A DNA stretch of 64,000 nt from Candidatus Aminicenantes bacterium (lineage in GTDB: Bacteria > Acidobacteriota > Aminicenantia > Aminicenantales > Aminicenantaceae), in the NCBI GenBank assembly GCA_029882525.1, contig JAOUKO010000001.1, positions 241-64,240 of the forward strand. Reading direction: 5' to 3'. The notes below the pieces were generated by a model that searched no databases, was not told the DNA's origin, and saw nothing but the letters and a program-made list of their open reading frames with translations. Made by a program: the position numbers and the translations under genes. Positions 32,412 to 60,769 of this stretch are shown piece by piece. Within the stretch, counting starts at the first letter, position 1. Every line of letters begins with the position of its first letter.

Positions 32412-33827
32412 TTGAAACGTCATCTTCTTCTCGATATTCTCAGCATGATCAAAAAGGAAATACAATCGGACAATGTAAAGGTTCTCGTGTTGAACGAGAA
32501 AAAAGAAATCATCTTTCGGAAAGGGCTCGGCAGCTCCCAGAATGAGAACGAGCACCTCGACCATGCTGTCATCCAGAAATGCATTGAGGAGAAGCAACCG
32601 GCTAACATCTATGGAGGCCGCGGGCTTTCAGGATGGGAATGTTCTAAAAATGGCTCAAAGAATATCCTCTGCCTTCCTTTTATCATTGAAGGAAAACCGG
32701 CCGGAGTTCTCTATCTGGATAGAAGTGACAGCCCCGATCCCTTTACTCTTCAGGATTTGGAGCTCCTGATCGTGCTCTCCAAGCCTATCCAGTGGGTGTT
32801 GAAGAATGGACAGAAATTCCAGGAGGCCGCCACCGGAAAAAATGGATTAGCCGGGTCTTTGCTGAGGGGCCGGAGTGGAGCTTTGAAGAGGATCATCACC
32901 TTGATTGACAGGGTGAAGGATTGCGAAACTCCTGTTTTTATCTGTGGAGAGAGCGGTACAGGAAAGGAGCTCGTCGCCAGAGCCATTCATCAGAACGGCA
33001 CAAGAAGGAACGGTAAATTCGTTGCGGTGAACTGCGGGTCCTTGCCTGAGCATCTTCTGGAGAGTGAGCTGTTTGGCTATGTGAGAGGAGCCTTTACCGG
33101 GGCCTTGAGGAACAGACCGGGATTGGTTGAAGAGGCCAATGACGGCACTTTCTTCTTGGATGAGATCGGGGACTTGCCTCTTTTTCTCCAAGCGAAACTC
33201 CTTCGGCTTCTCCAGGAAAAGGAGATCAGGAGGATTGGCGCTAACAGGGTTTTTACAGTGAATGGGAGGTTCATTAGCGCTACAAATAAGGATATTGAGC
33301 GAGAGGTTGAATGTGGGAATTTCCGTAAAGACCTGTATTACCGCCTCAAGATCATTACCATCGAGATTCCTCCTTTGAGGGAGAGGAAGGAAGACCTTCT
33401 TTTTCTGCTGGATTATTTTCTCGAAAGATACTGTGGGGATATGAAGCGGGAGAGGGTCTATTTTTCCCCAGGGGCGCTAGAGCTACTGATGGACTATTCT
33501 TGGCCGGGAAACGTAAGAGAGCTTCAGAACGAAATCCAAAGGTGTCTGGTCTTGACGGGGGAGGATAGTCTTATCAAAGAGGAATATCTTTCTCCGAAGA
33601 TCAATCCCGGGGCAGTGAAGTTCTCCAAGTCAAATTATGAATTCTATCAGGCTAGAGCCGAGTTTGAGAAAAGATTTTTAAGCCAGGCTCTTGCCCGCTG
33701 GAATTACAGCAGAACGAAAACGGCTGAAGAAGTGGGCTTGAGCAGGCAGGGTCTGTTTAAGTTGATGAAGAAATACAGGATAGATGCCAATAAGCGCAGA
33801 GAGACAGGCAATCAGAAGAAAAGGTAG
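32412..33827 (+). CDS. sigma-54-dependent transcriptional activator (GAF domain + AAA+ + Fis-type HTH)
   Basis: TTG start with AAGGGAG RBS; GESGTGKE Walker A, GAFTGA sigma-54 contact motif, C-terminal HTH. Confidence 0.85.
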   Translation: MKRHLLLDILSMIKKEIQSDNVKVLVLNEKKEIIFRKGLGSSQNENEHLDHAVIQKCIEEKQPANIYGGRGLSGWECSKNGSKNILCLPFIIEGKPAGVLYLDRSDSPDPFTLQDLELLIVLSKPIQWVLKNGQKFQEAATGKNGLAGSLLRGRSGALKRIITLIDRVKDCETPVFICGESGTGKELVARAIHQNGTRRNGKFVAVNCGSLPEHLLESELFGYVRGAFTGALRNRPGLVEEANDGTFFLDEIGDLPLFLQAKLLRLLQEKEIRRIGANRVFTVNGRFISATNKDIEREVECGNFRKDLYYRLKIITIEIPPLRERKEDLLFLLDYFLERYCGDMKRERVYFSPGALELLMDYSWPGNVRELQNEIQRCLVLTGEDSLIKEEYLSPKINPGAVKFSKSNYEFYQARAEFEKRFLSQALARWNYSRTKTAEEVGLSRQGLFKLMKKYRIDANKRRETGNQKKR

Positions 33828-47658: not shown

Positions 47659-48651
47659 CTAGAGGCCAATGGCCGCTCTGACTTCCTCCATGGTCTGCTG
47701 AGCCACGCGGCGCGCTTTTTTGTTCCCTTCTTCCAGAATATCCCAGACAAGCTGGGGATTTTTTTCGTACTTGCTCCTCTTTTCCCTGAAGGGAGCAAGA
47801 AGTTCGATCAGCCTGTTAATGACCACTTCTTTGCATTCCAGACAGCCAATTCCGGCAGTCCGGCATCCCTGGGCCAGTTCCTCTCTTTTGGTTTTGTCCA
47901 CGAAGGCCTTGTGGAAGGTAAACACCGGGCAGTCTTTCGGCTCTCCTGAGTCTGTCTTGCGCTTGCGCCGGGTATCGGTCACCATAGGTGATATTTTCTG
48001 CCGGATGACTTCTGGTGGGTCCTTAAGGAAGATGGAATTCCCGAGAGACTTGCTCATCTTGCGACCATCTGTTCCGGCAAGCTTCGGGACTTCAGTGAGG
48101 ATGGTCTGAGGTTCAGGAAATACGTTCCCATAGAGACGGTTGAAGCGCCGTGTGATCTCACGGGCAAGCTCCAGATGATAGGCTTGGTCTTCACCGACAG
48201 GGACGGCATTGGCCTTATACATGAGGATGTCCGCTGTCTGAAGCACCGGATATCCCAGGAACCCGTAGGTGTTCAGATCCTTATCCGGAATCTCCCTCTG
48301 CATCTCCTTTAAAGTCGGGACTCTCTGCAGCCAGGGAAGAGGAATTATCATTGACAAGAGCAGATGGAGTTCTGCATGTTCCTTAACCTCGGCTTGATTG
48401 AAGATAACGCTTTTTTGCGGGTCCAACCCGATACTCAGCCAATCCGCTCCCACTTCAAAGATGAAGTTCTTGATGATTTTCGAATTCTGGTATTCAGAGC
48501 TCAAGGCATGCCAGGTCACGATGCTGTAGAAGCAGGTGTGCTCTTCCTGGAATTTTAGCCAGTTGCGCAGTGCTCCGGCCAAGTGGCCGAGATGGCAGGG
48601 ACCTGTCGGCCTCAAACCGCTCAAGACGACCTTTTTCTTTTTACCGCTCAT
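47659..48651 (-). CDS. trpS: tryptophan--tRNA ligase
   Basis: SGLRPTGPCHLGHLAG (HIGH-type), KMSKS; ATG at 48651; the 5' 250 codons of ORF 47659..49401 overlap the M50 gene out of frame and are not coding. Confidence 0.85.
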   Translation of the reverse strand: MSGKKKKVVLSGLRPTGPCHLGHLAGALRNWLKFQEEHTCFYSIVTWHALSSEYQNSKIIKNFIFEVGADWLSIGLDPQKSVIFNQAEVKEHAELHLLLSMIIPLPWLQRVPTLKEMQREIPDKDLNTYGFLGYPVLQTADILMYKANAVPVGEDQAYHLELAREITRRFNRLYGNVFPEPQTILTEVPKLAGTDGRKMSKSLGNSIFLKDPPEVIRQKISPMVTDTRRKRKTDSGEPKDCPVFTFHKAFVDKTKREELAQGCRTAGIGCLECKEVVINRLIELLAPFREKRSKYEKNPQLVWDILEEGNKKARRVAQQTMEEVRAAIGL

Positions 48652-48653
48652 TT

Positions 48654-49334
48654 TTAAAGAAACACTATAGTATGGATGACCAGGGCTATCGGATACATCA
48701 GAATCCGGAGAAGCCCGAGATAGATCAGCGCCAGAAGTATGATGAACCCGAAGGGGCGGATCCGCTCGTATTTCTGGCCGGCCTCTTCCGAGAGGAAACC
48801 CATCAGGATACCGCTTCCGTCCAGGGGAGGAATCGGAATGAGGTTGAAAACAGCAAGCAGACAGTTGACGTAGGCGAGATAATAGAGGATAAGGGCCAGT
48901 ACTCCCAAAGGAAAAAAGCCGCGGTTCAGCCCTCCTATTTCGGAGAGGGAGGCTCTCAGGAAGAAAACAACATCGGGGCTGATAATCTTCAGAAAAACGA
49001 TGACAATGAGAGCAATGGTGGCCACGGTCAGGTTGGAAGCTGGACCGGCCGCCGATATCCAGAGATTGTCCCGACGGGGATTTCTCAGGTTGAGAGGATT
49101 GACAGGAACAGGCTTGGCCCAGCCGATAGGGACCAATCCCATGATCAGCATGATGAACGGAAAGATAACCGTTCCTATGGGATCGATGTGGGCGATGGGA
49201 TTGAGGGTAACCCTTCCCAGGGCGTAAGCAGTCGGGTCTCCCAGTTTGTATGCGGCCCAACCGTGAGCGGCTTCGTGCACGGTTATGGCGAAGAGCAGTA
49301 CAAAGACCACGATGATGATAGTAGAAACAGCCAT
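48654..49334 (-). CDS. M50-family (site-2-protease-like) membrane metalloprotease
   Basis: HEAAHG zinc motif in TM helix, LDG motif (NLIPIPPLDGS), about 6 TM helices. Confidence 0.75.
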   Translation of the reverse strand: MAVSTIIIVVFVLLFAITVHEAAHGWAAYKLGDPTAYALGRVTLNPIAHIDPIGTVIFPFIMLIMGLVPIGWAKPVPVNPLNLRNPRRDNLWISAAGPASNLTVATIALIVIVFLKIISPDVVFFLRASLSEIGGLNRGFFPLGVLALILYYLAYVNCLLAVFNLIPIPPLDGSGILMGFLSEEAGQKYERIRPFGFIILLALIYLGLLRILMYPIALVIHTIVFL

Positions 49335-49394
49335 TTTTCTTCCAGAGGTATTTATACCATATGAGGGGAACCTCGTAAAGCAAAAAGGGAATAA

Positions 49395-49435
49395 ATCTCA
49401 TGAAACGACAGGGAAATCGCTTCGCTCCAGTCCAA
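49395..49435. repeat. Solo terminal-repeat fragment of family-B MITE
   Basis: gaaacgacagggaaatcgcttcgctccagtcc matches the 31705 TIR. Confidence 0.4.
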
Positions 49436-49505
49436 TGGGGAAGATGATCAATAAAAAAGGCCCCATCACTGGTGACAGGGCCTTTGAATATCTGATCTAA
49501 AATGG

Positions 49506-51086
49506 TCAGCTTTTCAGGATTTTCTCGACTTCCTCTTTGTCCACTTCGGTGATGAAGGATATGCCGCTGATGTTCGCCGCATCTTGGGTCAAAGAGGCTA
49601 TATCGTCGCGGGTGATGTATTTCAGGGAGAACTTCCTGTTACCAGCCATGAGCTGACGCAGTCCTTGGCTGAGCCTGTGGAAGTAAGTGTAGAGCCCCAT
49701 CGCTCCTGTGGGGATGTTGTTGAACCTTTCCTTGTATTTCTTCTTCAATTCAGGTGCTGTAACGAATATTTCTTCGGCTGTATTGCCAAAGCGCTCCACA
49801 TAAACAGGGATCTGACCTTCGTCGATTCTCTTTCCGATCGTCTTGCCTACCATTGTGGCGGCCATAGGTCCTCTGGCCATGCCCACGACTTTGAAATACG
49901 GAGCACCCAGGGCAAGAGCTTTATAGATCTGGTCTTCGAAAGTGATTCCGCCAGCAGCCGCAACATCAGGAATATGTTCTCCTTTTTCGTCCAGCTTCTT
50001 GAGGTACTGATAGAGCAGGGACCAGATCTCCACACTCGGGATTCCCCATTCGTTCATCATTCGCCAGGGACTCATTCCTGTCCCGCCTCCGGCTCCGTCG
50101 ACTGTCAGGAGGTCGAGCCTTGCTTTGGAAGCGTACTTGACTGCCCGGGCCAGGTCTGCCGGCCTGTAAGCGCCTGTTTTCAAGAAGACGTACTTGGCTC
50201 CTGCCTTTCTCAATTCCTCGACTCTCTTCATGAAGCTTTCTTCTTCGACCATGCCCAGTCGAGAATGTCTTTCAAACTCCTTGAAGCTTCCCTTTTCAAA
50301 GGCCTTGATGACATCGGGATCATCGGGATCGGGAAGGACGATGTAGCCTTTTTTCTTCAGCGCTTGTGCTTTTTCGAGGCTCTTGATCTTGACCTCGCCG
50401 CCGATATCCTTGGCGCCCTGCCCCCACTTCAGCTCGACGACTTCGACACCGAGCTTTTCGATGACGTATTCATGGACTCCCAGCCTCGTGTCTTCCACGT
50501 TCGCTTGGACAACCACTGTCCCGTAGCCGTCCTCTTGGAATTCTTTAAAGAAGTTTACCCGTCTTTCCATGTCAGGCGACCGGACGACTTTCCCGTTCTT
50601 GATCTCTGATTCATCATCCATGCCGCAGACGTTTTCCCCGACAGTCAGGATGCTCCCTGAAAGAGCCGCACCCTTGGCCAGTCCTTCCCAATTCTGTTTG
50701 GCAACATTCGTCGAGCCCATGCCGGAGATAATAAAAGGGACTTTGAGCTTGATCCCTTTATCGTGGCCGATTGCGGTTTCGATGGTCACTTTAGGGAAAG
50801 TGGCTTTATCCGAGTCAGCCTCAACGCCATGGGCGCCCACGGCTGTTCCCATGATCGTGAAATCAGAGAGGTCGACAGGATATTCCTTTTCAGAGGCCGC
50901 GGTGATGATCCCGAAAGGCTGAGGATAGAGAACTTCATGCCCTCTGTAGGCTGATTTTCCTATCTCGCACATTCCGATACAGCCATCGACACACGTCACG
51001 CACATCCCGCTGAAGGGACTGATGGAACCTTCTGTCCTGTTCTTTGTCAGAGTAGCTGCGCTTCTGTTGAGTTTTGTATAGGCCAT
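49506..51086 (-). CDS. glutamate synthase-like FMN-binding catalytic-domain protein (archaeal-type GltB domain 2) with N-terminal Cys cluster
   Basis: 526 aa; CVTCVDGCIGMC N-terminal Cys motif; central TIM-barrel motifs of Glu_synthase family (GMGST, AGGGTG). Confidence 0.75.
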   Translation of the reverse strand: MAYTKLNRSAATLTKNRTEGSISPFSGMCVTCVDGCIGMCEIGKSAYRGHEVLYPQPFGIITAASEKEYPVDLSDFTIMGTAVGAHGVEADSDKATFPKVTIETAIGHDKGIKLKVPFIISGMGSTNVAKQNWEGLAKGAALSGSILTVGENVCGMDDESEIKNGKVVRSPDMERRVNFFKEFQEDGYGTVVVQANVEDTRLGVHEYVIEKLGVEVVELKWGQGAKDIGGEVKIKSLEKAQALKKKGYIVLPDPDDPDVIKAFEKGSFKEFERHSRLGMVEEESFMKRVEELRKAGAKYVFLKTGAYRPADLARAVKYASKARLDLLTVDGAGGGTGMSPWRMMNEWGIPSVEIWSLLYQYLKKLDEKGEHIPDVAAAGGITFEDQIYKALALGAPYFKVVGMARGPMAATMVGKTIGKRIDEGQIPVYVERFGNTAEEIFVTAPELKKKYKERFNNIPTGAMGLYTYFHRLSQGLRQLMAGNRKFSLKYITRDDIASLTQDAANISGISFITEVDKEEVEKILKS

Positions 51087-51157
51087 AATGATTACCTCCT
51101 TATTGACTCATTGATTTATTTGCAGCAAGAAGCACGAATATCATTTGTTTTCATTCC

Positions 51158-51868
51158 TTATTTGGTGTTGCTGACCTGCTCCTTACCGTCTTTTTTTTCT
51201 CTCACACACGTCCCGCAGCGGCCGGCGTCATACATCCAGCACTGAAGGTCGTCGTAATGGTCCAAACAGGTTGGCTCCATAGTCAAGCAGGCATTGCAGA
51301 CTGCCGTATCTGCTTCGGGGCCCTGGCACCTGAGCTGGCAGGCTGGGCAGATATAAATGCAGCCTCCGCAGAGGCGGCATTCTTCGGAGCGGATGTCGAA
51401 GGGGGTCGAGATTTTCCGCTTGAATCCTCGGTTTTGAAAGCCGATCGCCCGTCCGTCCATCTGCTCGGCGCACATCCGGACGCATAATCCGCACAGGATG
51501 CATTCTTCGTTCCGGACCTTGAAACGGACTTGAGTGACACCGAATTTCGAGGCCAAGTCCTGAATGACCTTAGAATTGGGAGCGATGGAAAGCATCAGCT
51601 CTATCATCATCTTTCGCGTCTCGATAACTCTTTTTGTATCCGTCCTGACGATCAAGCCTTCTTCCACGGGATAGGTACAGGATGAGACAAGTTTGGCTTT
51701 AGGGCCCTCGCCGATCTCGACCAGACAAAGACGGCAGCCTCCGTACGGGCTTAAGCCATCTTTATAGCAAAGGGTTGGAATCTCAAGCCCATAAAACTTG
51801 GCTGTTTCAAGAATGGTCCAACCCTCTTCAGCCTTGACTTCCAATCCATTCATGATTAAATTAATCAT
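51158..51868 (-). CDS. NuoG/HydA-N-terminal-like ferredoxin (2Fe-2S + two 4Fe-4S motifs), no catalytic domain
   Basis: 236 aa; plant-type 2Fe-2S Cys pattern near the N-terminus, then CILCGLCVRMC and CRLCGGCIYICPAC. Confidence 0.7.
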   Translation of the reverse strand: MINLIMNGLEVKAEEGWTILETAKFYGLEIPTLCYKDGLSPYGGCRLCLVEIGEGPKAKLVSSCTYPVEEGLIVRTDTKRVIETRKMMIELMLSIAPNSKVIQDLASKFGVTQVRFKVRNEECILCGLCVRMCAEQMDGRAIGFQNRGFKRKISTPFDIRSEECRLCGGCIYICPACQLRCQGPEADTAVCNACLTMEPTCLDHYDDLQCWMYDAGRCGTCVREKKDGKEQVSNTK

Positions 51869-54800
51869 TTCGTCCTTCCCATTGCGTTTTTGCCGTCTTT
51901 GGTTTCCAAATCACATCTTAGGCAGCGTCTTGCTTCCTCGACGGCTTTCTCTTCGGTTAATCCTAACTCAACTTCTTTAAAGTTCTTTTTTCTTGCGTTT
52001 AGAGATAACCTCGGCATTTTAGCTCTTTTTGCTTTTTGTATTTCTTCTTCAGTCAGCTCTACTGGCTCAACATAGAGGGATGGTCTGCTGAGCTTGTAGT
52101 CTCTGGCTAATCTTTCTCCTTCGAGATACTTTTCGATGGATTCTGCAGCTATCTTTCCTGCGGCGATGGCTTCGACCACTGTTTTAGGCCCGGAGACTGC
52201 GTCACCGCCGGCGAAGACGCCTTCTCTACCCGTCGAAAGAACTTCCTTATCAGCAATGATAGTCCCCCATTGGGTGACCTTCAGGTTATCTCCCTCTTTA
52301 ATGAATGAAATATCTGGCCTTTCTCCTATGGCAGGAATGAGTGTGTCTAATTCGACCGAGAACTCTGAGCCATCGATAGGAACAGGCCGTCTTCTGCCGC
52401 TTTCATCGAGATCGCCCAGCTTCATTCGTATGCATTCCACGCCGACTACCTTCCCGTTTTTTGTTAAAACCTTCTTGGGCGCCACTAAATACTGGATTTC
52501 GATGCCTTCCTGGAGTGCACTGTCGATCTCTTCTTCAAATGCGGGCATTTCTTTTCTTGTTCTTCTGTAGAGTATCGTCACCTTTTGGCAATCCTTACTT
52601 CGGATAGCGACTCGGGCTGCATCAACAGCTGCATTTCCGCCGCCGATAATGCCTACTTTTTCACCCAGCTTGACTTTTTCACCCAAATTGACTGCATGAA
52701 GAAGTTCCATGGCCTGAATAACGCCTTCTGCATTTTCTCCTGGAATCTTCAAATCCATCGATTTGTGAGCGCCAGTGGTAATAAATACAGCTCGATAGCC
52801 CTCTTTGAACAGGTCGTCGATAGTAAAATCTTTTCCCAAAGCAGTGTTTGTTTTAATGGTAACGCCAGATTTTATGATATTTTCAATGTCAGCATTTAGG
52901 ATTTTATTAGGCAACCGGTGCTCTGGAATCCCTATTGCCAGCATTCCTCCGGGCACGGAAAGGGATTCAAAGATGGTTGCTTGATATCCTTTCAGGCACA
53001 GATTGTATCCAGCTGTTAATCCTGCTGGGCCTGCACCTATGATCGCTACTTTTTCTTTATCGGTCTTGACGCGTTGGGCAGGTATTTGATAACCATTTTG
53101 TCTTGCCCAATCCATGACAAACCGCTTCAGGTCCCGAATGGCAATTGGCTCTCCTATTTCTCCGGCTCTACAAACTGTTTCACATGGATGATGGCAAACC
53201 CGACCGCAGACCGAAGGCAAAGGATTATCCTTGATGATGACTTTTAAAGCCTCTTCGAATTTTCCTTGAGCGATGAGAGCAATATAGACCGAAGCTTCCT
53301 GATCAATGGGACAGATGTATTGACATGGAGCAGAGACGATTTCTTTACAGACCAGAGCAGGGCATTTCTTAGAGAAGATGTGGCTTTCGTATTCATGTCG
53401 AAAATATCTAAGCGTCGACAGGACAGGGTTTGCGGCGGTCTGGCCCAGCCCGCAGAGTGAGGCATCTTTTGTGGTCCGAGCCAATTGTTCAAGCAACTGG
53501 ATATCTTTTTCTGTTCCCGTTCCTTCGGATATATCCTTGACGATTTCCCACATTCTTTGAGTTCCTTCTCGACAGGAGAGGCATTTGCCACACGATTCGT
53601 CTCTCAGAAAATTCAAGAAGTATTTCGCCACATCGACCATGCACGTGTTTTCGTCCATAACGATCATTCCGCCAGAGCCCATTATCGATCCTGCTTGAGT
53701 CAAGCTTTCATAATCTATCGGCAGATCCAACTTTTCCTTCGGGAGGCATCCTCCTGAAGGTCCGCCGGTTTGAACGGCTTTAAACTCTTTTCCTCCGGGA
53801 ATTCCTCCTCCGATATCAAAAATGATCTCTCTAAGAGTGATCCCCATGGGAACCTCGACTAACCCCGTATTATTGATTTTACCGACCAAAGAAAATATTT
53901 TGGTTCCCTTGCTTCCTTTGGTTCCTATATTGGAAAACCAATCGGCTCCTTTTTCGATGATAAGAGGAACATTGGCCCAGGTTTCGACGTTGTTGATGTT
54001 AGTTGGCTTGTTCCAGAGGCCTTTTACAGCGGGGAAAGGCGGTCTCTGCCTGGGTTCTCCGACTCTTCCTTCAACCGAGGCTATAAGCGCTGTTTCCTCG
54101 CCGCAGACAAAAGCCCCCGCCCCTTTAGAGATATGAATCCTGAAATTAAAATCCGTGCCGAGTATTTTTTTGCCGATCAGCCCGAATTCTTCTGCTTGGG
54201 AAATGGCTCTGGAGATATGTTTCACGGCAAGTGGATATTCGTCTCTGACATAGATAAACCCTTCCTCGGCACCGATGGCATAAGCACCGATGACCATTCC
54301 TTCCAATACGCGATGAGGGTTTCCTTCCAGCAAGCTGCGGTCCATGTAAGCCCCTGGATCTCCTTCATCAGCGTTGCAGATGATGTATTTTGTGTCGCCT
54401 TTTGCTTTCCTTGCGAATTCCCACTTGTAACCCGCCGGAAAACCGGCTCCTCCCCGGCCTCTAAGTCCAGACTGCTTTACAGTTTCAATGACTTCTTCTG
54501 GAAACATACCGCCTAAAACTTTGGCCAGGGAGCTGTATCCTCCGATAGAGAGATAATCGTTGATTTTGGTCGGGTCAATAAGGGCATTGTCGCCAAGAAG
54601 CAGGCGTTTTTGTTTCCTGTAAAAGGAAATGTCATCTTCTTTTAAAACAGTCTCTCCCGATACCGGGTCTGAATACAGAAGCCGCTCGATGGTTTCATTC
54701 TTGAGGATAGTTAGTGAAGCGATGTCTTCAGCATCCTTGGGGTGGACTTTCTGGTAGAAGATGTTTTCAGGCTGAATGATTATGTTGGGTTCAACCTCAC

Positions 54801-55026
54801 AGAAGCCGTGACATCCTGTTACCTTAATCTTTACTTTATTGGCCAGGTTTTTTTTCTGAATGGCTTTTTTCAAGGATTCAATGACTTTTAATGAACCGCG
54901 GGCTTGACCGCATGTTCCGGCAGACACGGTGAGGACATGCTTTTTTTCAGATTTTCTCTTCTGGATTTCGCTCTGAATAGTATGCTTCAAATCTTCGATT
55001 TTTTTTATTTTCTTGATTGCTTTCAT
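51865..55026 (-). CDS. fusion protein: thioredoxin-like 2Fe-2S domain + NuoF/HydB-like FMN/NADH subunit + GltD/NfnB-like FAD/NAD(P)H oxidoreductase
   Basis: 1053 aa; GRGGAGFPAGYKWEF FMN/NADH site, ESCGKCLSCREG 4Fe-4S, then dicluster CQYICP/CGRVCHHPCE, AIIGAGPAGL FAD and IIGGGNAAVD NAD(P) Rossmann motifs. Confidence 0.8.
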   Translation of the reverse strand: MKAIKKIKKIEDLKHTIQSEIQKRKSEKKHVLTVSAGTCGQARGSLKVIESLKKAIQKKNLANKVKIKVTGCHGFCEVEPNIIIQPENIFYQKVHPKDAEDIASLTILKNETIERLLYSDPVSGETVLKEDDISFYRKQKRLLLGDNALIDPTKINDYLSIGGYSSLAKVLGGMFPEEVIETVKQSGLRGRGGAGFPAGYKWEFARKAKGDTKYIICNADEGDPGAYMDRSLLEGNPHRVLEGMVIGAYAIGAEEGFIYVRDEYPLAVKHISRAISQAEEFGLIGKKILGTDFNFRIHISKGAGAFVCGEETALIASVEGRVGEPRQRPPFPAVKGLWNKPTNINNVETWANVPLIIEKGADWFSNIGTKGSKGTKIFSLVGKINNTGLVEVPMGITLREIIFDIGGGIPGGKEFKAVQTGGPSGGCLPKEKLDLPIDYESLTQAGSIMGSGGMIVMDENTCMVDVAKYFLNFLRDESCGKCLSCREGTQRMWEIVKDISEGTGTEKDIQLLEQLARTTKDASLCGLGQTAANPVLSTLRYFRHEYESHIFSKKCPALVCKEIVSAPCQYICPIDQEASVYIALIAQGKFEEALKVIIKDNPLPSVCGRVCHHPCETVCRAGEIGEPIAIRDLKRFVMDWARQNGYQIPAQRVKTDKEKVAIIGAGPAGLTAGYNLCLKGYQATIFESLSVPGGMLAIGIPEHRLPNKILNADIENIIKSGVTIKTNTALGKDFTIDDLFKEGYRAVFITTGAHKSMDLKIPGENAEGVIQAMELLHAVNLGEKVKLGEKVGIIGGGNAAVDAARVAIRSKDCQKVTILYRRTRKEMPAFEEEIDSALQEGIEIQYLVAPKKVLTKNGKVVGVECIRMKLGDLDESGRRRPVPIDGSEFSVELDTLIPAIGERPDISFIKEGDNLKVTQWGTIIADKEVLSTGREGVFAGGDAVSGPKTVVEAIAAGKIAAESIEKYLEGERLARDYKLSRPSLYVEPVELTEEEIQKAKRAKMPRLSLNARKKNFKEVELGLTEEKAVEEARRCLRCDLETKDGKNAMGRTK

Positions 55027-55499
55027 TTTCTTTCTCTTTTTGTCATGTACTTCTTGAGGATTGGAACGACCTTCCGGATGGTTGTCTGAGCGTGGTATTT
55101 GTCGTCAATAACGACTACTGGACCGATGGCACAACACCCTAAACAGGCTACTGTTTGCAGGCTGAACTTTCCGTCTTCTGTGGTTTCTCCAGCTTTGATA
55201 TTCAGTTTTTTTTCGAATTCTTCCAGAATTTTTAGGCCGCCTCTGACGTGGCAGGCTGTTCCCAGGCAGACTGTTACGAGGTGTCGTCCTCTTGGTTCGA
55301 GGCTGAAGGCGCGATAAAAGGTTGCGACGCCAACGATATCGATGAGCGGAATTCCCGTCGTTTCGGATACGATTCTCAAAGCATCCTGAGGAAGATAGTT
55401 GTACTCTTCCTGGATGTCCTGCAGGATGGATATGAGGGCTTTTTTTTCGCTGTTGTATTTTGTTACGAATGATTTGATTTTAGATTCTTGAATTTCCAC
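55023..55499 (-). CDS. NuoE/HydC-like thioredoxin-fold 2Fe-2S subunit
   Basis: 158 aa; VCLGTACHVRG ... ACLGCCAIGPVV four-Cys motif. Confidence 0.8.
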   Translation of the reverse strand: MEIQESKIKSFVTKYNSEKKALISILQDIQEEYNYLPQDALRIVSETTGIPLIDIVGVATFYRAFSLEPRGRHLVTVCLGTACHVRGGLKILEEFEKKLNIKAGETTEDGKFSLQTVACLGCCAIGPVVVIDDKYHAQTTIRKVVPILKKYMTKRERK

Positions 55500-55724
55500 C
55501 CGTTTTCCTCCGAATCGTATTATTGTTCTATTCTATTCAAAGATACTTTTCTCTCGGTTTGAGTGGCCTGAATTCGAGATTTCTCTGTGGGGTCATGATG
55601 AGTCTGACTGAATTTTATATTAGTGACCTGAATTGGAACGTTGAGGTGGACTTGAGAGAGAAAAGCGGATTGAGGTTATGAAGTTTATGATTCCTCCTCT
55701 TAACTTATGAATTTAAAAATTATT

Positions 55725-55738
55725 ATGAATTAATTCAT
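55725..55738. promoter_or_regulatory. Perfect 14-bp AT palindrome ATGAATTAATTCAT in divergent promoter region
   Basis: Read directly; adjacent direct repeats TTATGAATT(55706/55723) and ATTGTCAAT x2 (55794-55814). Confidence 0.3.
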
Positions 55739-55872
55739 TAAAACGTATTAGAATTTAAATTATTAACAAGGTTTTATAACAGATAAATATCATTATTGTC
55801 AATATTGTCAATGATTTTTCATTTCTCATAAGCCAGTGAAGTCAACCCGGGCCTAATCCCCAAGATTCCATC

Positions 55873-55901
55873 TTGACAGACAGGGAGAATGTGCCATAAT
55901 T
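55873..55901 (+). promoter_or_regulatory. sigma-70-type promoter for speH (TTGACA-16/17-cATAATt)
   Basis: Consensus -35 TTGACA at 55873-55878; -10 CATAAT at 55895-55900; RBS AAAAGGAG follows. Confidence 0.5.
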
Positions 55902-55931
55902 AGGTTCATTCTGTCTAAAAGGAGAAGAACA

Positions 55932-56369
55932 ATGCCCCAGAAGATACACCGCTCCATAGGGCATCACTATATCGTGGAAGCCTCGGGATGTGACCCAGAA
56001 ATCATAAGCAGTGTAGAAAAAGTGCAGCAGATATTGGTCAAGGCGGCTGATATTGCGGGAGCCAAAGTCTGGTCAATCTCCGTAAACCGGTTTCCGCCAA
56101 ACGGTGTCAGCGGAGTGATCGTGATCTCTGAATCCCATATATCCATCCATACCTGGCCGGAATACGGATACGGTGCCTTGGACTTTTACACCTGCGGTGA
56201 TGAGACAGACCCGGAAAAAGCTGTCTTCTTTGCTGTCGAGGCTTTTGGTGCCCAGACTTCACACATCACTGAGATCACAAGAGGAATCGAGGAAGGAGAT
56301 AAAATTTTCTATCATAGTTTTGTCACCTGGGAAGAAGATTTCGTCAGCTCCCCGAAAGATGATAAATAA
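55932..56369 (+). CDS. speH: S-adenosylmethionine decarboxylase proenzyme (small bacterial/archaeal type)
   Basis: 145 aa; ESHISIHTWPE self-cleavage/pyruvoyl motif. Confidence 0.85.
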   Translation: MPQKIHRSIGHHYIVEASGCDPEIISSVEKVQQILVKAADIAGAKVWSISVNRFPPNGVSGVIVISESHISIHTWPEYGYGALDFYTCGDETDPEKAVFFAVEAFGAQTSHITEITRGIEEGDKIFYHSFVTWEEDFVSSPKDDK

Positions 56370-56605
56370 TTCATTTTCAGGTAAGTGCTGGTCCCGGGAG
56401 TGTTAAATATTTTTACACTTTGTCTTGCGGGATTCAGGAAAGCCTCCTTTTGAAACCCCCTGCTCCTCTCAAGACGGCATTTTTCTGGATATGTTTAAGA
56501 TGGCATGAAAATTGCTGATGTTTTTTAACACTGGAGCAGTGAAGAGAAAAGAGCCATTTCGAAGACGAATTTTGCCTGATGCCTTGTTCGAACTCTTAGC
56601 CTGTA

Positions 56606-56620: not shown

Positions 56621-59251
56621 ATGAAAAGTAAGCATATTCATCTGTTTCTTATCCTCATTCTTCTCGCTTTTGTCCTCAACCTTGAGGCGAAACCTGGACC
56701 CCAGAATCTGAATGAATTCATCGCCCAGATTCAAGACTCCATCATGAAAAGAGATCTGGCGGCTTATCTGGAGAATTTTGTCTTTGAGATCAGGGAGATA
56801 GAGGAATCGAAATTCAAGAATATATTCGACCTCTTCGGGATGGAGAGAGTCGTTCTATTCAAGACATCTGAGTTGTCCCAGACAGGAGATGCAGCAGAAA
56901 TCTACCTCCAGGCCTTTTTTCAGAACTCCTTTTCTGTGATCATCGAAACCTGGCATTTGAGCCTTGTCAAGGTTGATGACCTCTGGAAGGTAAAAGAGAA
57001 AAAGATCATGGGCAACATCAGCTCGTTGTACAGGGTTCACATCCCTTCAGATAGAGTGGAAAAGGTCAAATCTTTCGATGTGGAACACAAGGACATTAAA
57101 ATTTCCTTCAGGGATGCTCTGCTCTTTTATGACAACATCCCTGAAATGGAGACAGCTTTGATCGTTGTGGGCAAGGGGCGCCTCCGCTTTTCTCCTTCCA
57201 ATCCAGTAGAAAGATATCAGCTTAAATTATCATACAAAAAAGAATATCTTGAAGACGAGCTGAATTATGTCTACCTCAGGTTCTCGGATCATTTTTTCAG
57301 GGAAAACATAAAAATAGTCAAAGATGCAGACGGGAAAAGCGTGCTGCTGCCTCCTGAAAGAGACGAAGCACAGTCCATATTCGAGAGGCATTACTCTCGT
57401 TCATTCACTGTTGAAAATTCCCTGAATAAAGAGCTGCTTTCGACCCTTCCCCAGGGAGACGAAGTGGTTTTCGAGTTTAAAGGGAAAAAGCTGGGAACTT
57501 TTACCTATATCTATTCTCCCTTCTCGGATGAAGAGATCAATTTGTTCCGCTGGAGAGATGAGAAGATCGTCAATCTCTACTCCCCTGACTCTGGAGAGAA
57601 GGGGAAAAGGATGTTTCTCTCTTTTGTCCAGATGTTCGAAGTTAAGGACTACCAGATTGACCTGGATTTTAAGCCCGATCAGTACTTTCTTTCCGGAAGA
57701 GCAAGGATCATAGTGGAATCCAAGGTCGAATCTCTTGATAGGTTGAAATTCAAGCTGAATCCTGGACTCAGCATTCTCCGTATCACCGATAATGAAAGGC
57801 GGGTTTTGTTCTACAGCCAGGACAAGCTGAGAGAGACACTGTATGTCTATTTTCTCCAGCCTCCTCCCCAAAACGAGCCTTATGCCATCGAGGTTTACTA
57901 TCGAGGAAAGCTCGAGCCGCCCGAACAGATCGCAGATGTGGTTGCTGCTGCTCAGATTTACAAGTGGGGAGGTCGATTCGGTCAGAATATTGTCTTTCTT
58001 CCTCCTGAATACGAGACCTATCTTTTTAGCCGAAGTGCCAACTGGTACCCTGCCCCGTCCGAAAATGATTATTTTCAGGCTCGTTTGAAGATCAGCGTTC
58101 CTTCTCAGTTTCAGTGTATCTCCAACGGAGAGTTGGTAGAGGAAACTTTGTGGAGTGGTCCAGAGAAGGTAAAAAAGTTAGAAAATGCCAAAAGTGCTGT
58201 CTTTGTCTATCAGACGACGCAGCCGGTTAAATACCTGTCTTTTATAGTCGGGAAATTCACCAATGCTGGCGAAGACGCGCAGTCGATTCCCGTCCAGCAT
58301 CTGTATTCATCTGGAATCAATTTCTCTCGAAAGGAAATCCTCAAGGAAGCCAAGAATATCGTGCACTTTTTCGAGGACAGATTCGGACCCTATCCTTACG
58401 GAAAGTTGAGCGTTGTCCGCAGATTATGGATAACCGCTGGGGGGCACAGCCCAGCTTCATTCATCATATTGAATGAGCTGTTTCAGTCCCAGGATGGCTC
58501 TGTGCTGGTTCCAGCGAGGAGTCCTGTTGACCTTTCCCGCTGGAGGGAATATTTCATTGCCCATGAGATCGCTCATCAGTGGTGGGGACAAGCCGTTACC
58601 TGGAAATCCTATCATGACCATTGGCTTAGTGAGGGCTTGGCCCAGTTTGCCGCAGTGCAGTACTTAGCCGAGAAGAACGGAAGGCAAGTATACTCTTCCA
58701 TCTTCGGGAAATTTTCCTACTGGACGGAAAGGAAATCGAAATGGGGACCGATTTCTCTGGGAGCCAGGCTAAGCCTGCATGACCCGTTTGCCTACCACGC
58801 CCTTATCTATAATAAAACAGCTTTGGTCCTGAATATGCTGAAAGACATGCTCGGTGAAAATGCGTTCTATGAGGGATTGAAAGGATTCTATCTCAGGCAC
58901 AGATACAGCGCAGCGAGCACGAGGGATTTCATCAAAGCCATGGAGGATGTGTCAGGTAAAGAACTGGATGTTTTCTTCAAGATGTGGTTCGACTCCTATC
59001 TTCTTCCCGAGGTCGGGGTTTCATACTCTGTACACAAATCAGAAGAGGGGTATATCCTGAAGTTGAAAATCAACCAGAGAAAAGAAACTTTTGTATTCCC
59101 GCTTTGGATAGAATGGCTCGAAGACGGAACAAAAGTTGAGAAGATGGTAGTCATCGACGAGCCGAATGAGGAGTTTGAGATCAAGGCTCAAGGCCACCCA
59201 AGGAGAATCAAGGTCAACCCGGACAAGGCTGTCCCCGGAAAATTCCGTTGA
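56621..59251 (+). CDS. secreted M1-family (aminopeptidase N-like) zinc metallopeptidase
   Basis: 876 aa; signal peptide; HEIAHQWWG followed 18 residues later by WLSEGLAQF (HEXXH-X18-E gluzincin motif). Confidence 0.7.
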   Translation: MKSKHIHLFLILILLAFVLNLEAKPGPQNLNEFIAQIQDSIMKRDLAAYLENFVFEIREIEESKFKNIFDLFGMERVVLFKTSELSQTGDAAEIYLQAFFQNSFSVIIETWHLSLVKVDDLWKVKEKKIMGNISSLYRVHIPSDRVEKVKSFDVEHKDIKISFRDALLFYDNIPEMETALIVVGKGRLRFSPSNPVERYQLKLSYKKEYLEDELNYVYLRFSDHFFRENIKIVKDADGKSVLLPPERDEAQSIFERHYSRSFTVENSLNKELLSTLPQGDEVVFEFKGKKLGTFTYIYSPFSDEEINLFRWRDEKIVNLYSPDSGEKGKRMFLSFVQMFEVKDYQIDLDFKPDQYFLSGRARIIVESKVESLDRLKFKLNPGLSILRITDNERRVLFYSQDKLRETLYVYFLQPPPQNEPYAIEVYYRGKLEPPEQIADVVAAAQIYKWGGRFGQNIVFLPPEYETYLFSRSANWYPAPSENDYFQARLKISVPSQFQCISNGELVEETLWSGPEKVKKLENAKSAVFVYQTTQPVKYLSFIVGKFTNAGEDAQSIPVQHLYSSGINFSRKEILKEAKNIVHFFEDRFGPYPYGKLSVVRRLWITAGGHSPASFIILNELFQSQDGSVLVPARSPVDLSRWREYFIAHEIAHQWWGQAVTWKSYHDHWLSEGLAQFAAVQYLAEKNGRQVYSSIFGKFSYWTERKSKWGPISLGARLSLHDPFAYHALIYNKTALVLNMLKDMLGENAFYEGLKGFYLRHRYSAASTRDFIKAMEDVSGKELDVFFKMWFDSYLLPEVGVSYSVHKSEEGYILKLKINQRKETFVFPLWIEWLEDGTKVEKMVVIDEPNEEFEIKAQGHPRRIKVNPDKAVPGKFR

Positions 59252-59259
59252 GGAAAAAA

Positions 59260-59385
59260 GGGGACAGGCTCTTTTTTCAAAAGAAATGGGACAGTCCCTA
59301 TTTTTCCTAATAAAGGGATTAAAAGGGACAGTCCCAAAAAAAGAGCCTGTCTCCTTTTCTCCAAAAAATTAGCCTGTCCCCTTTT
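59260..59385. repeat. Family-C nested palindrome element, copy 2, between convergent genes
   Basis: GGGACAGGCT, GGGACAGTCCC x2, AGCCTGTC, AGCCTGTCCCC in the same order as 32163-32262; abuts stop codons of both flanking genes. Confidence 0.7.
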
Positions 59386-60769
59386 AAACGATTTCTGTCA
59401 CGTCTATCTTCAGCCTTTTGATCATCTCGTTCAAGGTCGTGGCCTTGACTCCCAAGAGGCTGGCCGCTTTTTTTTGGATTCCGTTGCTCTGCTTGAGAGC
59501 TCTGAGGATAGCCTTTTTCTGAATGGTTTGGAGGTTTTCTTTGAGGTTGAGATCCTGATTGGACAGAGTAAGAGCCAGACCTTTATCCGGGGCGGAAAGG
59601 AGGAAAGGAGGAAGATTGTCTCTGGTGATGAGTTTGGTTTTTGTCAGGACGACCGCTCTCTCGATAAGGTTTTCCAGCTCTCTGATGTTTCCCGGCCAAT
59701 CATAGCTGATCAGGATCTCCATGACATCCGGGGTAACACCCTCGATTTCTTTATTGTTTTCCTGACTGTATATATCCAGAAAGTGTTTGACGAGAAGCGG
59801 AATGTCTTCTTTTCTTTCCCGCAAAGAAGGCAGCTCAATCTTGATGACGTTCAATCGGTAAAAGAGGTCTTGCCGGAATCTGCGTTCCTGTATGAGCACC
59901 TCCAAGTCTGAGTTGGTGGCTGCGACGACTCTCACATCGACCCTGATCGTCTTTGTTCCTCCGAGCCTCATGAATTCCCTCTCCTGCATTACCCGCAGCA
60001 GCTTGGATTGAGTCTCTATGTTGAGAGTGGAGATCTCATCGAAAAAAATGGTCCCGTATTCAGCCGCTTCAAACAGCCCTTTTTTTAAGCTGACGGCGCC
60101 TGTGAACGCTCCTTTGACATGTCCGAAGAGATGACTCTCGAGAAGGTCTGGAGGAAGAGAGCCACTGTTGACGATGATGAAGGGAAAGCTCGCCCGGTCA
60201 CTGTTCTGGTGAATGGCCCTGGCAACAAGTTCTTTACCCGTACCGCTTTCGCCTTGAATGAGGATAGTGCTGCGCGTGGGAGCAGAGGCCTTGATCGTTT
60301 CAAAGACATTCTGCATGACTTTACTTTTTCCGATGATGTTCTCGAAGCTGTATTTTCTTTTGAGCTCGTCCTTTAACTTCAGGTTTTCTTCCTGAAGGTT
60401 CTTATGTTCTATGGCTCTCTTCACCGTCAGCAGTAGCTCATCATGTTTAAAGGGCTTCTGGACGTAGTCGAAGGCCCCTATTTTCATGGCGGAAATCGCT
60501 GATTCCACCGAGGCGTAAGCGGTGATGATGATGATGACAGAACGAGGGTCCCTTTTTTTTAATAATTTCAAAACTTCAATCCCATCCATTCCAGGCATGA
60601 GCAGGTCCAGAAGGATGAGGTCGAACGTCTGGGAGGGATGCTTCTCCAGAGCCTCTTCCCCGTTTGCCGAGTTAACAACGGCGTATCCCTCAGAGGTTAA
60701 GAGTTCACCCAGAACCTCGTGGATGATTGGCTCATCGTCGATGATGTGAATCTTTCCTTTGTGTTCCAT
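59384..60769 (-). CDS. sigma-54-dependent two-component response regulator (NtrC family)
   Basis: REC domain (DDEP...D LILLDLLMPGMDG), GESGTGKE, GAFTGA, C-terminal HTH. Confidence 0.85.
   Translation of the reverse strand: MEHKGKIHIIDDEPIIHEVLGELLTSEGYAVVNSANGEEALEKHPSQTFDLILLDLLMPGMDGIEVLKLLKKRDPRSVIIIITAYASVESAISAMKIGAFDYVQKPFKHDELLLTVKRAIEHKNLQEENLKLKDELKRKYSFENIIGKSKVMQNVFETIKASAPTRSTILIQGESGTGKELVARAIHQNSDRASFPFIIVNSGSLPPDLLESHLFGHVKGAFTGAVSLKKGLFEAAEYGTIFFDEISTLNIETQSKLLRVMQEREFMRLGGTKTIRVDVRVVAATNSDLEVLIQERRFRQDLFYRLNVIKIELPSLRERKEDIPLLVKHFLDIYSQENNKEIEGVTPDVMEILISYDWPGNIRELENLIERAVVLTKTKLITRDNLPPFLLSAPDKGLALTLSNQDLNLKENLQTIQKKAILRALKQSNGIQKKAASLLGVKATTLNEMIKRLKIDVTEIV

Follow-up and report, generated by a model that had tools for sequence, protein, structure and literature searches.

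Enzymes of the Bfu family are known to use a variety of third substrates, of which H2, formate, NADP+, F420, aldehydes, CO, pyruvate, aryl-CoA, quinone and H2O2 have been listed, with neither glutamate nor 2-oxoglutarate among them, and clades 1-17 of the 57 in the same survey are without an assigned function (Schut et al., 2022, PMC9304861). The C-terminal B3/B4 ferredoxin-like domain of their BfuB subunit takes low-potential electrons from the mobile C1 domain and docks ferredoxin (PMC11829005; PMC12018979). Here we describe a locus in a 64,000-nucleotide stretch of the genome of a Candidatus Aminicenantes bacterium (assembly GCA_029882525.1, contig JAOUKO010000001.1, positions 241 to 64,240 of the forward strand; hereafter the window), in which four genes, here called g1 to g4, combine a Bfu-type module with a divergent member of the glutamate synthase family. 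The module is real and strongly conserved, it is apparently an undescribed variant of the Bfu family, and it is probably a glutamate synthase of a type not yet described. Our search of the full-text literature (most subscription journals are outside its coverage) turned up no report of a GltB-like subunit accompanying a Bfu or NuoEF module. A first-pass annotation, made from the sequence, had proposed that a HydABC/Bfu-type module is wired here to a glutamate-synthase-family flavin mononucleotide (FMN) subunit and not to a hydrogenase or formate dehydrogenase domain. This core idea has held, with a gene order conserved across about 15 phyla.

Many of the modules are also found, differently arranged, in NfnABC/StnABC, the Bfu-type transhydrogenase of Sporomusa ovata, Caldicellulosiruptor saccharolyticus and Thermococcus sibiricus (PDB 8oh5, 9bov and 9n5u). 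Common to both are BfuC, the BfuB core (FMN, B1, C1), the N-terminal [2Fe-2S]/[4Fe-4S] wire of BfuA and an NADPH module of the same GltD/NfnL-like subtype, with flavin adenine dinucleotide (FAD) and two [4Fe-4S] clusters (PDB matches of 1e-114 to 1e-126). However, in NfnABC the GltD module is inserted in a BfuA that also has an Fdh-like domain, and BfuB keeps B3/B4, whereas in the window BfuB bears the fused module where B3/B4 would be, BfuA is a 236-aa stub without the Fdh-like domain, there is a fourth subunit of the Glu_synthase family, and one-third of the relatives have no GltD module. The combination that marks Stn/NfnABC, GltD within BfuA together with an Fdh/NuoG-like domain, is thus not what we found, the module being on g2. 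A small BfuA adaptor with A1/A2/A4 clusters and a Cys-rich C-terminus is shared with WorABCSL of Acetomicrobium mobile (9mqx) and with other Type 2 Bfu enzymes (PMC9304861), and in this comparison the short-form relatives described below display the full BfuABC cofactor pattern. WorA is a small Type-2 BfuA that connects a separate catalytic module to the bifurcating core (PMC12318220); unlike in WorABCSL, the catalytic partner here would be a glutamate-synthase-family FMN/Fe-S triosephosphate isomerase (TIM) barrel.

The glutamate synthases GltBD/GltAB (Azospirillum brasilense, 6s6s; Bacillus subtilis, 7mfm; Escherichia coli) are similar in having a GltD-type NADPH-FAD-2x[4Fe-4S] partner, which at our locus is fused to g2, an FMN subunit of family PF01645 and a linkage to glnA and nitrogen regulators. 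They differ in that we found no amidotransferase, central or GXGXG domain fused to g4 or beside it, in the N-terminal 4-Cys motif of g4 and its marginal similarity to them (E 0.04), and in the extra NADH-binding NuoEF-type unit with its BfuA wire. Split or alternative-donor glutamate synthases provide a precedent for interchangeable parts. Geobacter GSU1235-1239 is a split GOGAT with an RpoN promoter and two extra hypothetical genes upstream (PMC2725144), and the F420-dependent glutamate synthase (GltS) gene clusters of methanogens and anaerobic methanotrophic archaea (ANME) are a precedent for modular electron input to GltS-type subunits (PMC9012536). Hence the GltB FMN subunit can be separate, take interchangeable inputs and be under sigma-54 or nitrogen control. 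The extra Geobacter genes presumably provide the amidotransferase and GXGXG parts; nothing like them was found beside g4, and the input differs from both precedents, being a Bfu-type NuoE/NuoF/BfuA set.

A conserved four-gene module

All four genes are minus-strand open reading frames (ORFs), co-directional as first annotated: g1 at 55023..55499, g2 at 55026..51865, g3 at 51158..51868 and g4 at 49506..51086. They had also been described as overlapping, which is correct for g1/g2 and g2/g3 (4 nt each) and incorrect for g3/g4, which are separated by 71 nt. This spacer contains an AAGGAGG ribosome-binding site, and our terminator search found no terminator-like site in it, the only one at this end of the cluster being an intrinsic terminator after g4 (49456..49485, minus strand; a 13-bp stem followed by a T-run). 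Given the 4-nt overlaps, the ribosome-binding site before g4 and the single terminator after it, the four genes look like one operon.

To find relatives, a trimmed alignment of the g4 family (a first version had been too diverse) was used to scan one genome per species (GTDB), and at least 593 species-representative genomes were found to carry g4. The gene-order counts given here come from the best 80 of these at least 593 matches, the presence of each gene being decided by BLAST of the window proteins against all ORFs of a locus. The best 80 loci span about 15 phyla, three archaeal lineages included, with g4 68-92% identical. The bacterial carriers are Aminicenantes, Zixibacteria, Planctomycetota, Bacteroidota/Ignavibacteria, Latescibacterota, Fibrobacterota, Desulfobacterota (Syntrophaceae, Smithella, Syntrophorhabdus), Bacillota (Dethiobacter), Riflebacteria and Eisenbacteria, and the archaeal ones Altiarchaeales, Thermoplasmata and Methanobacteriota. 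Directly upstream of g4 there is a g3 homologue in 77 of the 78 loci that could be assessed; a NuoF-like g2 is found upstream in 64 of 66, and a NuoE-like g1 in 56 of 58. One complete Aminicenantes genome retains the four genes with a different downstream flank.

The association of g1-g3 with g4 is therefore not due to chance, since the same order recurs across about 15 phyla. A fortuitous or lineage-specific juxtaposition of unrelated genes, the outcome that conservation in related genomes was to decide on, is refuted by this recurrence in both Bacteria and Archaea at such levels of g4 identity, and we give it practically no credence. The g3-g4 pair is the most constant feature of all, which speaks for g3 as the link between g4 and the BfuBC core, the part that WorA plays for the tungsten enzyme.

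The Bfu-like core

The product of g1 (158 aa) is a NuoE/HydC/BfuC-like subunit by both Pfam and NCBIfam, as the first-pass annotation had it. It matches 2Fe-2S_thioredx (PF01257) over the full profile at 5.8e-51 and the HoxE/NuoE models of NCBIfam at 1e-43 to 1e-44, and its Cys pattern C-x4-C...C-x3-C (CLGTAC...CLGCC) is that of a thioredoxin-like [2Fe-2S] "C1" domain, i.e., of the BfuC subunit of the Bfu family. In many lineages other than Aminicenantes the homologues are longer, ca. 280-340 aa (L044 4229-5077, L034 4237-5085, L036 322-1173, L069 5556-6410), with a C-terminal extension of ca. 130 aa that contains four CxxC-type pairs, looks like a zinc ribbon, has no Pfam match and is absent from the g1 of the window. 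Twelve loci (Zixibacteria, Bacteroidota, Fibrobacterota, Desulfobacterota) have in addition a small ORF of ca. 90-150 aa directly upstream of g1 (L034 3727-4182, L044 3820-4173, L038 3682-4044, L062 3853-4128 and eight others). It carries two repeats of C-x2-C-x5-C...(W)HCEE[YF], and the examples from L044 and L047 have no Pfam match. The sigma-54-like promoter, where one was found, lies upstream of this small ORF, so it may encode a fifth subunit or a metal-binding accessory protein.

In g2 (1053 aa) the Pfam domains Complex1_51K, SLBB, NADH_4Fe-4S, Fer4_20 and Pyr_redox_2 follow each other. Residues 1-565 (53332..55026, minus strand) are a BfuB/HydB/NuoF core (Complex1_51K 2.8e-48, NADH_4Fe-4S 4.1e-34, TIGR01959 4e-153). 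From residue 29 to 565 the best PDB match is the NiFe-HydB of A. mobile (7t2r_B, 3e-227), and FeFe-HydB, NfnB and WorB chains match about the same region, the whole range being 1e-183 to 3e-227. The core comprises an FMN/NADH Rossmann domain, SLBB, a four-helix bundle with the B1 [4Fe-4S] cluster and an H...CPxxxC motif, the putative "B2" (Zn) site, so that the NADH/FMN site and B1 typical of BfuB are both there. Its putative B2 segment, H...KKCPALVC, aligns with the region of HydB that precedes the C-terminal domain. At the N-terminus, where BfuB has a thioredoxin-like domain with the B5 site, the thioredoxin-like match is weak (PF01257, 23.2 bits against a threshold of 24.8), with three visible Cys (C39, C72, C76).

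Residues 566-1053 (51865..53331, minus strand) are a GltD/NfnL-type module (Fer4_20 9e-27, Pyr_redox_2 2.2e-29, NF009410 1.1e-147), made up of Fer4_20 with two [4Fe-4S] clusters, FAD and a second Rossmann fold (marked by "LYRRT"); the first of these clusters is probably completed by the CLRC near the C-terminus of g2. The best PDB matches of residues 566-1039 are the GltD-like inserts (ca. 102-567) of StnC/NfnA, at 1e-105 to 1e-126 (9bov_A 2.7e-126, then 9n5u_A and 8oh5_C), and the NfnB of NfnAB (4ylf_B) and GltD (7mfm_I, 6s6s_G) are matched more weakly.

The junction between the two parts is sharp. The BfuB part stops at residue 565, after KKCPALVCKEIVS / HIFSKKCPALVCKEIVS, and the GltD-type sequence begins at "APCQYICP" (residue 566), right after CPALVCKEIVS. 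Only two [4Fe-4S] motifs are found past residue 565, both within the Fer4_20 part of the GltD module, and the g2 of the window has no 2x CxxCxxCxxxC domain, the C-terminal B3/B4 domain of BfuB. In relatives with a g2 of 616-624 aa, H..CPAGVC is followed at the same point by this canonical 2x CxxCxxCxxxC domain, without GltD; 20 such short-form loci have it. Judged from these alignments, the GltD NADPH/FAD/2x[4Fe-4S] module of the window replaces the ferredoxin-binding domain of BfuB. The fusion described in the first-pass annotation is thus confirmed for the NuoF core and the GltD module, and weakly for the thioredoxin-like domain, and has to be corrected for the ferredoxin dicluster, BfuB ending at residue 565. 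Its prediction of an NADH plus ferredoxin-linked enzyme does not suit the enzyme of the window, where GltD occupies the place of B3/B4; it would fit the short relatives of 616 aa.

Upstream of g4, 44 of 64 loci have the long fusion and 20 the short form. On a neighbour-joining tree of the NuoF core (drawn without support values) the two are intermixed, e.g., one short-form Aminicenantes locus falls amid long-form Aminicenantes and a long-form planctomycete amid short-form ones, and this intermixing points to more than one exchange between the ferredoxin-like domain and the GltD module. Most simply, the two would be alternative outlets (or inlets) on one and the same branch, to ferredoxin in the short form and to NADP(H) in the long one. 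The survey of Schut et al. required a ferredoxin-type domain on BfuB in its search (PMC9304861) and the long form would therefore be expected to have escaped it. From hybrid [FeFe]/[NiFe] hydrogenase clusters of Thermoplasmatota, a HydB that carries a fused GltA(GltD)-type domain has been described, with a model based on 7mfm chain I (PMC11216029). We liken it to g2 by its description only; it stands beside hydrogenase subunits and was proposed to serve a low-potential acceptor, whereas g2 stands beside a Glu_synthase-family subunit. One Aminicenantes locus (L017 1444-10581) has both sets in tandem, in the order NuoE, NuoF-GltD (1038 aa), a second NuoE, a short NuoF (616 aa), a second BfuA (259 aa, 48% identity), g3 and g4, which may be a snapshot of cassette exchange or a complex with both outlets.

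The third gene, g3, encodes a small BfuA of 236 aa with Fer2_4 (9.8e-15) and Fer4_7 (4.4e-07), the latter a 4Fe-4S dicluster. Its predicted clusters are A1 [2Fe-2S] (C34, C45, C48, C64) and two ferredoxin-type [4Fe-4S] (C123-133, C164-174), after which come seven further invariant C-terminal Cys (C177-C218); all 19 Cys are essentially invariant (77-81 of 77-81 homologues). There is neither a catalytic domain nor a His-ligated cluster of the NuoG N5 type. The best PDB match is WorA (9mqx_A, 247 aa, 6.3e-36), and the N-termini of HydA, StnC and NuoG are also matched; by its domains and the WorA match g3 is the BfuA-type subunit of the set. It had been annotated as a NuoG/HydA-N-like ferredoxin without catalytic domain, which is right, carrying only the 2Fe-2S and two 4Fe-4S motifs, which overlooks the seven extra Cys. 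In two Aminicenantes loci (L013 8489-10578, L015 2-2100) g4 is preceded only by a g3 of 160 aa that lacks the N-terminal [2Fe-2S] domain, in L013 with no g1 or g2 upstream; this version looks reduced or decaying.

A divergent glutamate-synthase-family subunit

The product of g4 (526 aa) matches Glu_synthase (PF01645) at 74.5 bits, well over the cut-off of 20.4. Residues 279-410 match profile positions 185-310 at 1.2e-20; the N-terminal half alone gives 27.7 bits (residues 109-233 against 60-156), so the match to this FMN-binding domain of GltS is collinear across both halves. Out of 16 diverse members of the family 13 match PF01645, and no other family comes above threshold. FMN_dh (PF01070) stays below it with an E of 0.0097, and so g4 does not classify with the alpha-hydroxy-acid oxidases/dehydrogenases and IDI-2. 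In the AlphaFold2 model (mean predicted local distance difference test, pLDDT, 81.9) g4 is an FMN TIM barrel. The searches thus identify a Glu_synthase-family barrel in g4, next to NuoF and GltD domains in the 1053-aa protein, as first annotated.

The family conserves ELKWGQGAKDIGGE and VDGAGGGTGMSP, which resemble the QGAKPGEGG and DGGTGASP loops of GltS. For the "WGQGAK..." motif the tentative equation with QGAKPGEGG comes from the Pfam alignment. There are just five Cys in g4, C154 and the four of an N-terminal motif, C29-x2-C32-x3-C36-x3-C40 (50967..51002, minus strand), which are conserved in 84 of 84 homologues. We predict that the motif binds an Fe-S cluster that would take electrons from g3, the role of the [3Fe-4S] cluster in GltS. 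In the region of g4 that a tentative alignment with an E. coli GltB segment places at the internal Cx5Cx4C [3Fe-4S] motif there is no Cys; this alignment (g4 321-411, hhalign probability 86%) we take as a lead only. The label "archaeal-type GltB" that g4 had received is correct as regards the Glu_synthase-family FMN domain and the N-terminal Cys cluster and overstates the likeness to known GltS. GATase_2, GXGXG and Glu_syn_central were found neither in g1-g4 nor in any other window ORF of at least 150 aa, so the reported lack of a glutamine amidotransferase domain stands on that scale. A second, more divergent g4 paralogue (49-61% identity) lies in or next to the operon in loci of Dethiobacter, Altiarchaeales and Desulfatiglandales (L022 3129-4712, L064 10270-11859, L073 1997-3643).

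Nitrogen and glutamate genes around the module

We clustered all flanking ORFs of 82 loci to see which neighbours recur. Glutamate dehydrogenase (GDH) adjoins the module in 14 loci from at least seven phyla, often 130-330 bp away and on the same strand. Directly upstream of g1, eight Aminicenantes-type loci have glnA with an AsnC-type regulator. An NtrC-type sigma-54 response regulator is found upstream on the same strand in 26 loci of many phyla, a histidine kinase in 17, and NrpR, the archaeal-type nitrogen repressor, adjoins in three. Of 64 loci, 13 have a sigma-54-like promoter within 700 nt upstream of g1, an enrichment of ca. 30-fold over the background of 0.009 per kb. Taken together, the genomic context favours a role in glutamate and nitrogen metabolism.

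Proposed function and alternatives

On domains and gene neighbourhoods a glutamate-synthase function is likely, and we hold, with slightly better than even confidence, that g1-g4 form a Bfu-derived glutamate-synthase-like complex working with NADH/NADPH (with NADH/ferredoxin in relatives). From the same data we infer the formation of the complex, its substrate, nitrogen donor and direction and any bifurcation. The four products would make up one soluble iron-sulfur flavoprotein complex, in which g1 and residues 1-565 of g2 would form the NADH-binding FMN/B1/C1 "flavobicluster" unit, with NADH bound at the FMN of BfuB. As a Type-2, WorA-like wire, g3 would carry electrons between B1 and g4, the catalytic "third-substrate" subunit, passing them from its A clusters to the N-terminal 4-Cys cluster of g4, which would replace the internal [3Fe-4S] of classical GltS, and on to the FMN of g4. 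The reaction there would most likely be the GOGAT half-reaction, 2-iminoglutarate (2-oxoglutarate + NH3) to L-glutamate. Since no glutaminase domain was found nearby, the nitrogen donor would be free ammonia, or else an amidotransferase whose gene lies elsewhere would supply it. The FMN of BfuB would be linked by the mobile C1 domain of g1 to the C-terminal module of g2, that is, to the GltD clusters, FAD and NADP(H) in the window and to B3/B4 and ferredoxin in the short-form relatives. With the GltD module replacing the B3/B4 domain, the second redox partner in the window would be NADP(H) and not ferredoxin.

The 2-oxoglutarate + NH4+/glutamate couple, computed from the textbook GDH equilibrium, lies at ca. 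-0.12 V, far above NAD+/NADH, and so bifurcation from NADH would be the energetically sensible coupling. Of the electrons from NADH, one share would go exergonically into glutamate and the other, endergonically, to ferredoxin (short form) or NADP+ (long form); plain co-donation by both nucleotides is the alternative. That the module is a flavin-based electron-bifurcating, amidotransferase-free glutamate synthase, with its uphill branch going to ferredoxin or, via GltD, to NADP+, we regard as a rather doubtful possibility.

Several observations weigh against the glutamate synthase proposed here. By sequence g4 is very remote from characterised GltS, and its fold is for that reason not decisive for the substrate. 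In phmmer searches with g4 no solved structure in the PDB was matched at E<=0.01, among the hits of the g4-family profile de-novo TIM barrels prevailed and the GltS large chain came no better than E 0.04, and a 58-column profile of the "WGQGAK..." region retrieved nothing at E<=10. No amidotransferase, central or GXGXG domain appeared among the recurrent flank families of the 82 loci. It is synteny only that points to a g3-g4 complex. Bifurcation is especially uncertain in the form found in the window, where B3/B4, a defining feature of Bfu, is missing. Finally, a co-transcribed GDH could equally point to the catabolism of glutamate.

This last point leads to the same complex running in reverse, as a catabolic, confurcating dehydrogenase of glutamate (or of amino acids), which we consider unlikely. 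Glutamate oxidation (ca. -0.12 V) is too weak to reduce NAD+ alone, and reduced ferredoxin (short form) or NADPH (long form) would have to be co-oxidized to yield 2 NADH, in a way analogous to the Ldh-EtfAB lactate dehydrogenase of acetogens. The structural evidence fits this scheme equally well, as its energetics are the exact reverse of those above. It also agrees with the nature of the carriers, mostly anaerobic peptide/amino-acid fermenters or syntrophs (Aminicenantes, Zixibacteria, Ignavibacteria, Syntrophaceae, Smithella), with the peptidase genes (M1, M50, M29, M20) around the locus and with the frequent co-transcription of GDH. Against it stand the linkage to glnA, NrpR and NtrC-type sigma-54 regulators, a setting more usual for assimilatory enzymes, and the ordinary GDH that these operons already contain; nor do we know of a GltS-family FMN enzyme that acts as a catabolic glutamate dehydrogenase. 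As the fold is not decisive for the substrate, g4 could instead act as an FMN/Fe-S oxidoreductase on some other compound, be it a 2-oxo acid, a 2-hydroxy acid, an imine or an enoate (2-hydroxyglutarate/2-oxoglutarate or lactate/pyruvate, for example), with the Bfu module supplying or accepting the electrons. We see this as improbable, if a little less so than the reversed enzyme: PF01645, collinear in both halves, is the only Pfam family above threshold, FMN_dh remaining below, the glutamate/nitrogen context recurs in many phyla, and in 44 of 64 loci g2 carries a fused GltD module, with which GltB naturally pairs.

It could also be argued that g1-g3 on their own are an Stn/NfnABC-like NADH/NADPH (±ferredoxin) transhydrogenase, with g4 an independent enzyme on a common transcript. 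Apart from the B3/B4 domain, g2 has all the redox modules of NfnABC, the closest match of its GltD part is the one inserted in StnC/NfnA, and the 71-nt gap precedes g4. But the 20 of 64 loci that lack the GltD module still keep g1-g2-g3-g4, and the most conserved feature, in 77 of 78 loci, is precisely the adjacency of g3 and g4. Moreover, g3 has no Fdh-like domain as StnC/NfnA has, and its seven extra invariant Cys would lack a partner if it did not dock to g4. The one role known for WorA-type BfuA is that of an adaptor for a separate catalytic module (PMC12318220). We therefore give this alternative very little weight.

Regulation and neighbouring genes

Upstream of g1, a region of 432 nt (55500..55931, listed on the minus strand) is the presumed promoter/leader, common to the operon and a divergent S-adenosylmethionine decarboxylase gene. 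As reported in the first-pass annotation it is AT-rich and has palindromes, two of them (55705-55766 and 55792-55815), both AT-rich and one overlapping a doubled TTGACA. It carries TTGACA-17-TTATAA and a direct repeat of 16 nt, 60 nt apart, AGTGGCCTGAATTCGA (55562-55577) / AGTGACCTGAATTGGA (55622-55637); the repeat and the palindromes are candidate operator sites. The idea of regulation drawn from this region gained no backing from our searches, which found no riboswitch or leader-RNA family (Rfam, 55400-56000) and no sigma-54 site before g1 in the window. On the strand of the operon and 3.9 kb upstream of it there is a pair formed by an NtrC-type sigma-54 response regulator (59384-60769, minus strand) and a PAS/GAF histidine kinase (60776-63658, minus strand), candidate regulators of the operon by analogy with the other loci. 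The only good sigma-54 site in this search, TGGCATGAAAATTGCT (56501-56516, plus strand), near-consensus with 1 mismatch, is ca. 105 nt upstream of an M1 peptidase gene (56621-59251) placed between the operon and this pair.

Further away, a second sigma-54-dependent activator of 471 aa (32412-33827, plus strand), with no receiver domain at E<=1e-6, adjoins a Na+/H+ antiporter-family gene and an amidohydrolase. Downstream of the operon, an ORF of 580 aa (47659-49401, minus strand) could be taken for a fusion, which we rejected: the tryptophanyl-tRNA synthetase gene starts at about residue 251, and the N-terminal extension is spurious, being Arg/Pro/Ser-rich and overlapping, out of frame, an ORF of 226 aa (48654-49334). 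This smaller ORF occupies the place where relatives encode an M50 peptidase, and the gene order around the synthetase matches that of two relatives (L002/L004).

Possible meaning for nitrogen assimilation

Nitrogen enters biomass through glutamate synthase, which is known to take electrons from NADPH, NADH, ferredoxin and, putatively, F420. In metagenome annotation genes like these are named "NuoE/NuoF/hydrogenase-like", which can inflate the apparent capacity for complex I or hydrogenase and hide an enzyme of nitrogen assimilation. The apparently repeated swap between the ferredoxin domain and GltD at a single position of BfuB is a natural experiment on the wiring of the low-potential branch in these non-canonical bifurcating enzymes. 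If the function proposed here is true, a Bfu-type input would be a new way to power glutamate synthase, present in at least 593 species-level genomes from about 15 phyla of anaerobic bacteria and archaea, and 2-oxoglutarate/glutamate would join the "third substrates" of the Bfu family. Should the bifurcating version also be true, the interchangeability of the ferredoxin domain and GltD as cassettes would mean that Bfu enzymes can have their low-potential outlet re-plugged, and nitrogen assimilation in many anaerobes would conserve energy or make low-potential reductant.

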